Notes: generated by a model from the letters alone, not told the origin. DNA of 64,000 nt from Thermoanaerobaculia bacterium (GCA_041567315.1 JBFGCA010000002.1:8055-72054); one strand, 5' to 3'. Counted from the stretch's first letter, positions 14,909 to 33,179 are shown. Program-made: numbers and translations.

Positions 14909-17545
14909 TCAGGTAAGAGGAGCGGTCGGCTTGTCCAGCGGCCCGCGGCGAGGTCGGACGGCAATGGCGAGAAGAGTCGCCAGGGCAAGGAGCGACACGA
15001 CGCTGGCGGCGGCGAGGGGACGGCGGTCGATCCAGATCCGAACTTGGTGGGTGCCGGCAGACAGTGAGAGGCCAAGACGGTGGATGTTGGCGGCCTCCAG
15101 CGGCGCCGGGCGGCCGTTGACCATTGCGCGGTACGTGCCGAGGAAGGCGCGCTGCACGACCAGCGCCCCGGGCCGGTCGGCCACCACCTCCAGCTCGAGG
15201 TCGGTGGTCCCAGAGGCCAGAACCCGCACCTCGCCGGCCGGCCCCGGGCCAGGAGACCCGGCACCGCTCAGCCCCTCCACCGTCGAGATGTCGTCAGGCG
15301 CCACCGCCTGGGCGGGCCTCGCGCCAGGCGCCCCCGCTCCGCCCGGCTCTACCTGGAACACCCCTTCGCCCACCGGTGGCGCGGCGACCTCGCCGCAGCC
15401 GCCCGTCAGCCCTCTCCCGGTCTTACTTTCTGACTCGTTTTTCTGACCCGAGACCGGAAATACCGCCGTCGTCCACGGGTCGAAGCCCGGGGCGGTGATC
15501 CAGGTGAGGGCGGCGTTGAGGTGGGGGGCGCGCAGCACCTCCCCGACGAAGTGGACCTCGGGGAGGGCGGCGGGCAGGCGGTAGACCAGGATCGGGTCGC
15601 CGTCCGGCGGCTGGTGGACGTGCTCGAGGCGGGCGAGGTCGGCGGTCGAGGCCTCGAGCTCGCGGTCGAGCAGCAGCAGGTCGACCCCGGAGGCGGCGAG
15701 CAGGCGCAGGCGGGCCGCGTCGTCGAGGGCGGCGAACGACTGCGCAGTGGCCCGGGTGAGGAAGGCGTCCAGTCCCTCGGGCGAGGGGTGGAAGGCGTAC
15801 CGCCGTCCCCAGAGGATGCCGGCCGCCGGGTGGAGCTCGGCGAAGGCCCGCCGCTCGAGCCACAGCAGCCGGGCGTCGGGCTGGCCGGCGGCCGGCAGGC
15901 GCACCGAGCCGAAGAGCCCGCTCGCCGGCCCGTGGGCGACAAGCGCCGAGGCGGGGACCGCCGCCAGCAGCGCGGGCGGCTCGAGGTAGGGGGCCAGTTC
16001 GTCGGTGGCCAGCACCGGCCGCAGCAGGAAGAGCTGGAGACCGAGGTGGACCGGCAGCAGGGCGGCGAGCGCCGGACTCCCGAGCCGGCCTCCCCTCAAG
16101 CCGGTCCGGCGGCCGGCGCCGAGCCGCACCACGATCGCCAGCACGCCGAGCGCGGCGAGCGAGATCAGGCACAGGCCGGCCCAGCGGAGCCGCTCGGCCG
16201 CCGCCAGGCCGGGCGCGGCACCGGCCGGCAGCCACGGTCCCAGGGCCTCCTCGGCGGCCGCCGGGGCCAGGGTCAGGGCCAGCCAGGCCACGGCGTAGAG
16301 CACCGCCAGCAGACCCAGCGCGCGCCCCAGCGGCCGGCGGCCCGGACCGCGCAGCAGGCGCTGGAACCCGAGACCGCAGAGCAGGCTGCCGCCCACCGCC
16401 ACCAGCGGCCAGAACTTGACCGGCAGCCGCAGCAGGTCGGCGCCCGGCAGCGCCAGCAGCCAGCCCACCGCCGGGTTGTGCCGGCCGAGAGCCAGGAACA
16501 GCCCGGCCGCCGCCACCACCCACGCCCAGGCCGCCGCCCGCACCCGCGGCCGCCCCGCCGCCGCCACCAGCACCAGCGCCAGCAGCCCGGGATAGAGCGT
16601 CAGAAAGAGCGGCAGGTCGCCGCCGTGCTGGCGCCAACCCCAGAAGCCGAGATCCGGCCGGCCGAAGAGAAACGGCAGCAGCCACTCGGCGGCCGCCGCG
16701 GGCGGCCAGCTGGCGGCGGTGGCGGCGGCCGGCGAATAGCCCGCCACGGCGCGGAAGGAGAGCGGCAGGATGCGCGCGAACTCGACGATCTGCGGCACGG
16801 CAACCAGGGTGCCCACCATCGTGCCGGCCGCCAGTCGCGACCAGCCCGCCCGCCGCCAACCGTGCCGCGCGGCGGCCGCCGAGAGCGCCAGCACGAGCGC
16901 CACGACAGCGGTCATCGGGTCGCCGCCCAGCAGCATCAACGCCCACAGCACGGCCAGCGCCGCCCAGCCGCGACGCCACCCCCGCCCCCGCGCCCCGCCA
17001 GCGCCCAGCGCCGCGGCGGCCAGGGCCGGGGCCAGGGCGGCGCCGGCCACCAGGTTGTAGAGGTTGAGACTGGAGAGGAAATAACCGCTTCCCGCGTAGC
17101 AGACCCCGGCCGCCCAGGCGGCCTCGCGGCTGAGACCCCAGGCGCGCGCCAGCCAGAAGGCCGAGAACGGCGCCAGCAAGAGGTGCAGCCAGAAGTGGGC
17201 GTTGAGCGCCCAGAAGGGCGAGGCCACCAGGTAGAGCAGGTTGTCCGGATAGAGGGGGACGCTGTTGGGGTTGCCGAGCAGCGGCTGGCCGCCGTCGCGG
17301 TAGGGATCGACGAGCGCCGGCTCGCCGCTCCGCCAGGCCGCGGCCTGCACCCATTTCATCTCCAGGTGGGTGTTGAAGACGTCGCGCAGATAGAGGGTGC
17401 GGTCGCCCCCGGCCAGGGGCAGCGCGGCGACGCCGAGCAGCGCCAGGGTGGGCGCCACGTAGAGCAGCGCGAAGCGACGGCGGCGGCGAGCGGGCCCGGC
17501 CCGGCGCTGGCGTCTACGGCTCGGCTGGCCCTGCGGGCGACTCAT
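14909..17545 (-). CDS. large polytopic membrane protein, YfhO-like / GT-C-fold putative glycosyltransferase (paralog of 29994-32402)
   Basis: 878 aa from ATG 17545 (MSRPQGQ...); at least 12 predicted TM helices. Conserved first-loop motif DPYRDGGQPLLGNPNSVPLYPDNLLYL shared with the second paralog (GGQPLLSNPNYAAFYPPTWL). C-terminal about 250-aa soluble domain. Confidence 0.5.
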   Translation of the reverse strand: MSRPQGQPSRRRQRRAGPARRRRRFALLYVAPTLALLGVAALPLAGGDRTLYLRDVFNTHLEMKWVQAAAWRSGEPALVDPYRDGGQPLLGNPNSVPLYPDNLLYLVASPFWALNAHFWLHLLLAPFSAFWLARAWGLSREAAWAAGVCYAGSGYFLSSLNLYNLVAGAALAPALAAAALGAGGARGRGWRRGWAALAVLWALMLLGGDPMTAVVALVLALSAAAARHGWRRAGWSRLAAGTMVGTLVAVPQIVEFARILPLSFRAVAGYSPAAATAASWPPAAAAEWLLPFLFGRPDLGFWGWRQHGGDLPLFLTLYPGLLALVLVAAAGRPRVRAAAWAWVVAAAGLFLALGRHNPAVGWLLALPGADLLRLPVKFWPLVAVGGSLLCGLGFQRLLRGPGRRPLGRALGLLAVLYAVAWLALTLAPAAAEEALGPWLPAGAAPGLAAAERLRWAGLCLISLAALGVLAIVVRLGAGRRTGLRGGRLGSPALAALLPVHLGLQLFLLRPVLATDELAPYLEPPALLAAVPASALVAHGPASGLFGSVRLPAAGQPDARLLWLERRAFAELHPAAGILWGRRYAFHPSPEGLDAFLTRATAQSFAALDDAARLRLLAASGVDLLLLDRELEASTADLARLEHVHQPPDGDPILVYRLPAALPEVHFVGEVLRAPHLNAALTWITAPGFDPWTTAVFPVSGQKNESESKTGRGLTGGCGEVAAPPVGEGVFQVEPGGAGAPGARPAQAVAPDDISTVEGLSGAGSPGPGPAGEVRVLASGTTDLELEVVADRPGALVVQRAFLGTYRAMVNGRPAPLEAANIHRLGLSLSAGTHQVRIWIDRRPLAAASVVSLLALATLLAIAVRPRRGPLDKPTAPLT

Positions 17546-17615
17546 GCGGCGGCGGCGAGACGGGTGGCGCCCCTCATCCTCCGGCCGGCCCTCCGCCCCT
17601 CTTACAATACCGGCC

Positions 17616-32402: not shown

Positions 32403-32405
32403 GAG

Positions 32406-33179
32406 ATGCAGGTTGATCCACTGCTCGCCCTCTACGCCCTGCTGGTGGGCCTGGTGGTGGGCAGCTACCTCAACGTCCTGATCCACCGGCTGCCGCGCGG
32501 GGTCTCGACCGTCCGGCCGCGCTCGCGCTGCCCGTACTGCGACGGCCCGATCGGCGCCCGCGACAACGTGCCGCTGGCCAGCTTCCTGCTGCTCAGGGGC
32601 CGCTGCCGGCGCTGCGGCGCCCCCATAGCCTGGCGCTACCCGCTGGTCGAGGCGCTCACCGGCGCGCTGTTCGCGGCCTGCGTGGTGCGCTTCGGCGCCA
32701 GCCTGGAGGCGCTGACGGCGGCGGTCTTCGCGGCGCTCATGGTGCTGCTGGCGATGATCGACCTCGAGCACTTCCTGCTGCCCGACCGGGTGACCCTGCC
32801 GGGGATCTTCCTCGGGCTCGCTCTGCAGCCGTGGCGGCCGGGGGTCGGCTGGCTGGAAGCGGTGGTCGGGGCGCTGGCCGGCGCCGGTCTGCTGGTGCTG
32901 CTGATGAACCTCTGGTACTGGCTGCGCGGGGAGGAGGGCATGGGGATGGGTGACGTCAACATGATGGCGCTGATCGGCGCCTTCCTGGGCTGGAAGGCGG
33001 CCCTGGTGGCGCTGCTGGGGGCGGCCCTCAGCGGCGCGCTGCTGGGGATCGTCCTGCTGCTCGCCGGCCGCGTCGGCTGGCGCTCGCGGCTGCCGTTCGG
33101 GGTCTTCCTGGCCGGCGGCGGCCTGCTGGCGCTGTTCGCCGGCGAGCGGCTGCTGGCGCTCTACGGACGCCTGCCCTGA
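32406..33179 (+). CDS. pilD: prepilin peptidase / N-methyltransferase PilD (A24 family)
   Basis: Cys-box CPYCDGPIG...CRRCG, catalytic-Asp regions (LAMIDLEHFLLPD; GMGMGDVNMMALIGAFLGW), 8 TM helices. Confidence 0.9.
   Translation: MQVDPLLALYALLVGLVVGSYLNVLIHRLPRGVSTVRPRSRCPYCDGPIGARDNVPLASFLLLRGRCRRCGAPIAWRYPLVEALTGALFAACVVRFGASLEALTAAVFAALMVLLAMIDLEHFLLPDRVTLPGIFLGLALQPWRPGVGWLEAVVGALAGAGLLVLLMNLWYWLRGEEGMGMGDVNMMALIGAFLGWKAALVALLGAALSGALLGIVLLLAGRVGWRSRLPFGVFLAGGGLLALFAGERLLALYGRLP

Follow-up and report, generated by a model that had tools for sequence, protein, structure and literature searches.

Gene content of the locus

The subject of this analysis is an interval (14909–33179) in a 64-kb stretch of DNA (the window; ~74% G+C) from a Thermoanaerobaculia bacterium, an uncultured soil acidobacterium. 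Within it, the genes for a major type IV pilin and its prepilin peptidase, pilA and pilD, share their surroundings with a gene for a UbiA-family enzyme, predicted to act in the synthesis of a lipid-linked pentose, and with four genes for large membrane proteins of apparent GT-C glycosyltransferase type. An initial annotation had treated all of these as one system, with pilA and pilD embedded in a pentose locus that would furanosylate pilin or the envelope. The gene content that it described is all present, at or near the positions it gave, and the interval holds further genes that it had passed over, namely those for two M20 metallopeptidases (M20a and M20b), a fusion of MFS-like and spermidine-synthase-like domains (MFS/SpdSyn), and a VWA-domain protein. 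Long spurious open reading frames (ORFs) are present in all frames of the window; since at 74% G+C a plain list of ORFs is of no use, genes were called from a codon-position GC frame plot, and the encoded proteins were annotated by Pfam and NCBIfam scans.

On the left of the interval, a minus-strand gene, g902 (14909–17617), assigned to the YfhO-type GT-C membrane glycosyltransferases through its paralogy with g802 (below), stands head to head with the plus-strand UbiA gene (17616–18488), whose product is a predicted polyprenyl-phosphate 5-phosphoribosyltransferase of the DPPR synthase, or PPPRS, type. Three genes follow on the plus strand. The PAP2 gene that the initial annotation had placed downstream of UbiA proves to encode a PAP2_3 membrane phosphatase or phosphotransferase (18497–19573; Pfam PF14378, E=7e-24), begins after a gap of 8 nt, and is separated by 1 nt from, and translationally coupled to, the MFS/SpdSyn fusion (19575–21137; NCBIfam NF037959, 213.5 bits). 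A secreted VWA-domain protein (21154–22335; TIGR03436, 146 bits) lies 16 nt further on and is the last gene of the UbiA-side operon here.

The right-hand part opens with two minus-strand genes that overlap by 4 nt: g589 (22688–24457), a PMT/ArnT-like GT-C candidate, and g606 (24454–26274), predicted from its modelled structure to be a GT-C_A-fold glycosyltransferase. Divergent from g606 and on the plus strand are M20a (26301–27752; Pfam Peptidase_M20), a membrane-anchored metallopeptidase upstream of pilA; pilA itself (27973–28515; Pfam N_methyl, TIGR02532); M20b (28633–30009; Pfam Peptidase_M20 and M20_dimer), a secreted metallopeptidase; g802 (29994–32402), a YfhO-family GT-C glycosyltransferase by its orthologues' PF09586 matches and by Foldseek; pilD (32406–33179; Pfam A24_N_bact and Peptidase_A24); and, just beyond the interval, a PilS-like PAS histidine kinase (33211–34980; Pfam PAS_4, HisKA and HATPase_c).

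Nearly all homologues of these proteins were from metagenome-assembled genomes of Acidobacteriota, assigned to Thermoanaerobaculia, Holophagales and 'Multivoradales'. Gene order was compared across ~160 related loci from this phylum: 80 from a g606-alignment scan of species-representative genomes, the ORFs of which were searched with the window proteins, and 80 from a metagenome scan with UbiA (51–73% identity).

A DPPR-synthase-type UbiA enzyme

The UbiA protein (290 aa) shows no HAD domain in the Pfam and NCBIfam scans. It matches Pfam UbiA and passes the cut-offs of two NCBIfam equivalog models, scoring 307.8 bits where NF008977, 'decaprenyl-phosphate phosphoribosyltransferase', requires 234 and 232.1 bits where NF008978 requires 207. 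Of the solved structures, Mycobacterium tuberculosis Rv3806c (PDB 8j8j; E=1.9e-38) matches it best. The hallmark loop that the initial annotation had singled out aligns with YLVNDVRDVEADREHPTKRFRPIAAG of Rv3806c. The Mg/PRPP motif region (PRPP, phosphoribosyl pyrophosphate) is likewise kept, the NDxxDxxxD motif of cytoplasmic loop II being YLFNDIRDREEDRRHP in UbiA and YLVNDVRDVEADREHP in 8j8j, and in the R/E segment of loop IV (KRxxEL) SKRRHEL of UbiA aligns with GKRYAEL. Residues of NDxxDxxxD and of the KRxxEL region are required in both Rv3806c and ORF15 of Citrobacter youngae (PMC11127046). By these family models and motifs UbiA is to be classed as a polyprenyl-phosphate phosphoribosyltransferase of the Rv3806c/PPPRS type, as first proposed, and not as a quinone prenyltransferase.

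The UbiA superfamily is broad, and the protein could in principle be an ordinary aromatic or quinone prenyltransferase, in which case the locus would have no connection with lipid-linked pentoses at all. A grouping with MenA/UbiA quinone enzymes was an outcome that would have refuted the initial annotation. It is not seen: models for MenA, for UbiA and for heme O synthase all score below 45 bits, far under their cut-offs, as against 232–308 bits for the two DPPR-synthase models, and in the PDB search 4-hydroxybenzoate octaprenyltransferase reaches only E=7e-4 where Rv3806c reaches E=1.9e-38. We regard a quinone-type function as extremely improbable.

In mycobacteria the epimerase pair DprE1/DprE2 belongs to the same pathway as Rv3806c. 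Consistent with the earlier remark that these genes are missing from the window, Pfam and NCBIfam scans of all 64 kb found no FAD_binding_4/SDR pair of the DprE1/DprE2 kind and no NAD-epimerase gene, and DprE1/DprE2 were also not found in the related loci inspected. The PAP2_3 protein belongs to the PAP2 superfamily via PF14378, is without an NCBIfam match, and, coupled to UbiA as it is here, may be the phosphatase that removes the 5-phosphate.

The YfhO-type paralogues g902 and g802

None of the four large membrane proteins has a significant Pfam match or a sequence match in the PDB, for which reason homologue alignments and structure prediction were applied to them. For g902 and g802, Pfam returned only weak, sub-threshold DUF2079 and YfhO matches; g802 scores 22.6 bits against YfhO (PF09586; cut-off 28.5), a family that most of its orthologues (45–53% identity) do carry, and g902 itself has no YfhO match in the Pfam scan. 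The AlphaFold model of g802 (predicted local distance difference test 87.5, predicted template modelling score 0.90) retrieves AftD in Foldseek (E=4e-8), followed by STT3, AftA and ArnT, so that a GT-C fold is supported for the modelled protein. The two proteins are 37% identical across 368 residues (E=1e-25) and are thus paralogues, as had been claimed; by this paralogy with the modelled g802, g902 is predicted to be GT-C-type as well. In related genomes the two groups split cleanly by context, with all 68 of the copies beside UbiA/accC being g902-type and all 39 of the copies in pil operons g802-type. Members of the YfhO family elsewhere are protein-modifying enzymes in some cases, O-glycosylating proteins in streptococci (PMC12041528).

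If the longest ORFs are used, g902 and UbiA overlap at their starts, head to head, and the g902 reading frame opens with ~45 highly basic residues that are not found in its shorter orthologues (775–820 aa). The true start of g902 probably lies downstream of the longest-ORF start, which would leave a short common divergent promoter region between the two genes.

The pilin operon and its predicted control

The pilA product is a prepilin with the cleavage and methylation site GFTLIE, and its start agrees with the gene called in L001, a contig of assembly GCA_041609795.1, taken to be the same genome; an exact copy of the window's PilD occurs on contig JBFIQD010000019 of that assembly. Downstream, M20b runs 16 nt into g802, pilD follows g802 after 3 nt, and 31 nt separate pilD from the kinase gene; g802 is translationally coupled inside a pilA–M20–g802–pilD–pilS operon. 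The gene upstream of pilA was checked for a pilus-related function and is an M20 peptidase by Pfam. Given the N-terminal membrane anchor of M20a and the signal peptide of M20b, both peptidases are predicted to be extracytoplasmic. The bracketing of a pilin gene by two M20 genes is kept in about 40/44 related loci, and we found no described equivalent of this arrangement in the literature. The pilins have an ordinary Ser+Thr content (median 0.13).

A sigma-54-type promoter motif, TGGCACGTAACCTGCT, lies upstream of pilA on the plus strand (27863–27878) and has the form TGGCAC-N5-CTGCT. The initial annotation had called pilA sigma-54-driven, and the wider sampling bears this out: the pattern TGGCAC-N5-YTGCW has only two matches in the window, at 27863 and 35088, each upstream of pilin genes, and in related loci 49/68 matches to the sigma-54 motif fall 30–350 nt upstream of a pilin gene. 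With no more than these two in the window, control of both pilin operons by the PilS/PilR-like pair (33211–34980 and 44637–46088) is suggested. The second motif, TGGCACCCGCTTTGCT (35088–35103, plus strand), precedes the genes for minor pilins, PilW, PilX and PilY1.

Conservation of gene order in related Acidobacteriota

Around g606 the gene order is strongly kept, running from the divergent g606 through M20a, pilin, M20b, in some cases a further pilin, g802, pilD and pilS to the minor pilins. Of 53 loci with enough flanking sequence, 48 have a pilin gene no more than 4 kb from g606, and, where the pil side of g606 extends for 8 kb or more (44 loci), a pilin is present in 40 cases, an M20 gene in 40, a kinase in 33, g802 in 25 and pilD in 22. 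Both g606 and g802 keep their place near pilA and pilD throughout an entire class of Acidobacteriota. The opposite side of g606 is far less constant: among 45 loci, the MFS/SpdSyn fusion recurs in 15, beside g606 and between it and UbiA, with UbiA itself in 10, g902 in 9 and PAP2 in 5. No more than 10/45 species have UbiA within 10 kb of g606, meaning that the two groups of genes adjoin in about a fifth of them.

Seen from UbiA, the picture is a different one. A g902-type gene is divergently adjacent to it in 31/36 loci with enough flank, usually followed by accC and accB, and lipopolysaccharide (LPS) core genes lie upstream. Downstream of UbiA, 34 loci show GT2 (14) and GT4 (12) glycosyltransferases, the MFS/SpdSyn fusion (5) and PAP2 (3). 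Genes for pili adjoin UbiA in just a handful of loci. The notion of a single system, with pilA embedded in a pentose locus, finds no support in this comparison, since the partner that UbiA keeps is g902 and pil genes are missing from the surroundings of most UbiA loci.

The reading we favour, to which we assign a probability of roughly 0.5, is that the interval consists of two separately conserved modules of Thermoanaerobaculia type lying side by side: an envelope-pentose module built on UbiA and g902 (module 1), and a module of GT-C enzymes associated with the pilin operon (module 2).

One metagenome locus (L148, about 9995–14300) departs from the usual layout in that UbiA is without a g902-type neighbour and sits directly between accC and an M20–pilin pair, an arrangement that is rare.

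The GT-C candidates g606 and g589

The predicted structure of g606 has a GT-C_A fold, with ArnT among its top fold matches, an invariant DD (D38 D39) that follows the first transmembrane helix, and a small alpha/beta domain at the C-terminus; an alternative gene-caller start would give a protein of 581 aa (24454–26199). For g589 the assignment as a candidate GT-C comes from its homologues, 8/32 of which match Pfam PMT and 7/32 PMT_2, and it is less well supported than those of the other three proteins. There is in addition a weak match of g589 to the LA_3751/LA_3752 family (NCBIfam) and an hhalign match to the g606 family (E=3e-4). The claim of a GT-C type for each of the four large membrane proteins is upheld, with two resting on structure prediction, one on paralogy and one on the Pfam matches of homologues. 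A BLASTP E of 0.12 led us to reject g589 and g606 as tandem paralogues. Residues ~200–270 of g589 form a Pro/Ser/Thr/Ala-rich insertion of ~70 residues, without which its homologues align in two flanking blocks.

These two proteins invite an explanation in which the GT-C enzymes beside pilA, and g606 and g589 in particular, are ArnT/PMT-like modifiers of lipid A, LPS or envelope proteins that draw on hexose or amino-sugar donors, the adjacency to pilA being inherited and of no consequence for the pilus. Here the ArnT-like fold of g606 would find a natural place, as would the DegT/DnrJ/EryC1 sugar aminotransferase gene, of the ArnB family, that in 19/71 relatives comes directly downstream of g606, in many cases with an overlap; this coupling hints that the donor of g606 is perhaps an amino-sugar lipid, in the manner of ArnB/ArnT, and not a pentose. 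LPS genes are close by, and g589 occupies this position only in the present genome (the L001 contig), where it is accessory. Such an inherited adjacency sits poorly, however, with how stable the g606–pilin neighbourhood is (the 48/53 loci above) while pilin gene number and far-side neighbours vary, and it does not explain why g802 is inside the pilin operon in overlapping or abutting reading frames. On balance we consider this account rather unlikely. A DegT gene is not found downstream of g606 in this window; the loci that have one include L003, L004, L007, L031, L040, L089 and L158.

Comparison with known glycosylation systems

A known case of pilin furanosylation is the group IV system of Pseudomonas aeruginosa/paraeruginosa (TfpW, PsPA7_6245–6251), in which the pilin receives D-arabinofuranose, and the likeness is real to the extent that in both the surroundings of pilA include a homologue of Rv3806c, a gene of the PAP2 superfamily and one for a GT-C enzyme with a periplasmic DD motif. 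TfpW is a 646-aa GT-C enzyme with a DDx motif, a C-terminal tetratricopeptide repeat (TPR) domain and a YX6PFX7P motif, encoded directly downstream of pilA (bioRxiv 10.1101/2020.04.19.049825), and its function in strain Pa5196 needs DprE1, DprE2 and the Rv3806c homologue (bioRxiv 10.1101/2020.04.19.049825). In g589, g606, g802 and g902 there is neither a Pfam TPR match nor a regular-expression match to YX6PFX7P or to the Emb-like YX6PX5P. Unlike in the TfpW system, no GT-C gene lies immediately downstream of pilA, M20 genes intervening, and UbiA is usually unlinked to pil genes in relatives. The analogy with TfpW drawn by the initial annotation thus holds for fold (GT-C), for the DD motif and for proximity to pilA, and fails for the traits that define TfpW, namely its TPR domain, its proline-rich motif and, in the window, DprE1/DprE2. 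The locus should not, in our analysis, be filed as TfpW-type.

A single furanosylation system for pilin can be formulated by analogy with TfpW: UbiA, with PAP2_3, would make polyprenyl-phosphate-ribofuranose or, should epimerases be encoded elsewhere, -arabinofuranose, and g802 and/or g606 would place the sugar on Ser/Thr of PilA. Much about module 2 fits such a scheme, as g802 lies between pilA and pilD in one tight operon, g606 and g802 are conserved beside pilins, g802 is paralogous to the UbiA-partnered g902, and protein O-glycosylation is within the reach of YfhO enzymes. UbiA does adjoin the pil module in ~20% of species, this one included, and in P. indica and Kingella denitrificans pilA–tfpW clusters with D-arabinofuranose genes (bioRxiv 10.1101/2020.04.19.049825). 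The scheme runs against the constancy of g902, not of pil genes, as the partner of UbiA, most UbiA loci having no pil genes near; against the failure to find a TPR domain, the proline-rich motif or, in the window, DprE1/DprE2; and against the ordinary Ser+Thr content of the pilins and the frequent coupling of g606 to DegT. To us this makes a single pilin-directed pathway unlikely.

Module 1 resembles more closely the three-component systems in which undecaprenyl-phosphate-ribofuranose is made from PRPP by a PPPRS and exported by a flippase, after which a GT-C enzyme adds the pentofuranose to a periplasmic glycan (PMC11127046). In these systems epimerases are optional and alter only the sugar, and the ribofuranose donor is both established and widespread (Kelly et al., PNAS 2024, PMC11127046). 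As in Citrobacter youngae O1/O2 (ORF15/ORF14/ORF12), an Rv3806c-homologous UbiA-family PPPRS lies beside a GT-C gene and near envelope-glycan genes, and polyprenyl-phosphate-ribofuranose would be usable without an epimerase. The differences are that the GT-C partner here is assigned to the YfhO type (PF09586) by way of its paralogue g802, where C. youngae has a GT136 enzyme (ORF12); that the PPPRS is without a fused HAD phosphatase, a separate PAP2_3 gene accompanying it in some genomes only; that the window holds no MATE flippase; and that the host is an acidobacterium. On this comparison, module 1 may be regarded as a variant of the three-component pentofuranose system. It follows that the polyprenyl-phosphate-ribofuranose donor suggested in the initial annotation is a reasonable proposal; the description of such a system as undescribed has to be qualified, since direct use of this donor by a GT-C enzyme without an epimerase is already established (PMC11127046).

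With the mycobacterial decaprenyl-phosphate-arabinose pathway (Rv3806c, Rv3807c, DprE1/DprE2, Emb/Aft) the locus shares a homologous first enzyme (E=1.9e-38) and nearby GT-C genes with predicted folds matching AftD, AftA and AftB, among others. Those fold matches are no nearer to the Aft enzymes than to ArnT, oligosaccharyltransferase and ALG enzymes, and, in contrast to the mycobacterial case, there is no epimerase pair in the window, the PAP2_3 protein is not demonstrably an orthologue of Rv3807c, and the host is Gram-negative with LPS.

A further set of relatives is found among the YfhO GT-C enzymes of Firmicutes, which share a Pfam family with the g802 orthologues and include Bacillus subtilis YfhO/CsbB, which act on lipoteichoic acid, and streptococcal PgtC2 and PgfM1/2, which act in protein O-glycosylation. 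These enzymes use a polyprenyl-phosphate-sugar donor at the membrane's outer face, and some accept Ser/Thr-rich proteins. Their donors are hexoses or N-acetylhexosamines supplied by GT2 enzymes of the GtrB/CsbB type, whereas the paralogues described here are paired with a PPPRS or with pilA/pilD.

Proposed roles of the two modules

Family and fold assignments, operon spacings and synteny statistics were all computed here; every substrate, donor and acceptor in what follows is inferred. In module 1 (14909 to ~21137), UbiA would, by its family, move 5-phosphoribose from PRPP onto polyprenyl phosphate at the cytoplasmic face of the membrane, and a phosphatase, here perhaps PAP2_3, would strip the 5-phosphate to give polyprenyl-phosphate-ribofuranose. 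This lipid would then be flipped across the membrane, and g902 would transfer the pentofuranose to an extracytoplasmic acceptor. The MFS/SpdSyn fusion might be the flippase or a modifying enzyme, both of these being speculative and the flippase role a guess. The acceptor is most likely LPS or another envelope glycan, given the neighbouring waaA, lpxL and GT9 genes and the GT2/GT4 genes in relatives, and ribofuranose is taken as the default sugar because no epimerase gene is nearby.

In module 2 (24454–34980), which comprises the sigma-54-driven operon of M20a, pilA, M20b, g802, pilD and pilS together with the divergent g606, the two GT-C enzymes g606 and g802 are candidates for glycosylating pilin or some other pilus-associated periplasmic substrate. 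Pilin glycosylation by g802 is a fair hypothesis, in view of the O-glycosylation of proteins by YfhO enzymes and of the coupling of g802 between pilA/M20b and pilD. Being an ancient paralogue of g902, g802 could also use the same pool of lipid-linked pentose, and this possibility is the sole substantive link between the modules.

Several observations weigh against this two-part arrangement or against steps within it. All of the loci compared belong to one class-level clade, so that the synteny counts overstate the independent support that they give. PAP2_3 is directly downstream of UbiA in only 3/34 UbiA loci, and its orthologues in other genomes (50–58% identity) are mostly found in unrelated neighbourhoods, by which contexts its standing as a dedicated partner of UbiA is weakened. 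An epimerase, DprE1/DprE2 or another, may be encoded outside the window, elsewhere in the genome, and would change the sugar. Flippases of the MATE, GtrA and SMR families were not found by Pfam among the called genes of the window, nor near UbiA. The coupling of g606 to DegT in 19/71 relatives, finally, sits uneasily with a pentose donor for that enzyme.

A more ambitious version of the pilin hypothesis would make of these genes a system common to the class, of Thermoanaerobaculia/Holophagae-like type, in which g802 O-glycosylates pilin with UbiA-derived ribofuranose and in which g606 and the M20 peptidases may join, the latter in pilin maturation. We hold this to be quite improbable. Were g802 to ribofuranosylate pilin, no YfhO-type pilin glycosyltransferase would have preceded it, and protein ribofuranosylation from a lipid-linked donor would be seen for the first time.

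Acidobacteriota are a dominant and poorly characterised soil phylum, and, if module 1 functions as proposed, glycosylation with PRPP-derived, lipid-linked pentofuranose would extend to them. The pathway would there be paired with a YfhO enzyme and not with the GT136 prototype, giving a broader bioinformatic signature by which such systems can be recognised. Module 2, with its M20–pilin–M20 bracket, two GT-C genes and pilD, is a conserved gene arrangement that is apparently undescribed, and in the literature we found neither pilin glycosylation nor a PPPRS reported for Acidobacteria. It offers concrete candidates for the post-translational modification of pilin outside Proteobacteria. Modification of pilin is relevant to phage resistance and to surface adhesion, and a cultivated relative, Thermoanaerobaculum aquaticum, could allow testing.

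Flanking genes

Upstream of the interval, and identified by Pfam/NCBIfam, as are all of the genes named in this section, lie pilB (3380–5023, minus strand) and pilC (5091–6302, minus strand), followed by a gene for an extracytoplasmic function (ECF) sigma factor and then by waaA, an lpxL-like acyltransferase gene and a GT9 heptosyltransferase gene, all between pilC and accB/accC (12705–14800, minus strand). Downstream of the PilS-like kinase, the genes for minor pilins, PilW, PilX and PilY1 extend from 35058 to 42552, and a FecR-like gene (43314–44600) lies between PilY1 and the gene for the PilR-like sigma-54 activator (44637–46088, minus strand). Beside this regulator are two adjoining genes of the TldD/PmbA metallopeptidase family, with no evident link to the locus, on the minus strand at 46562–49446.

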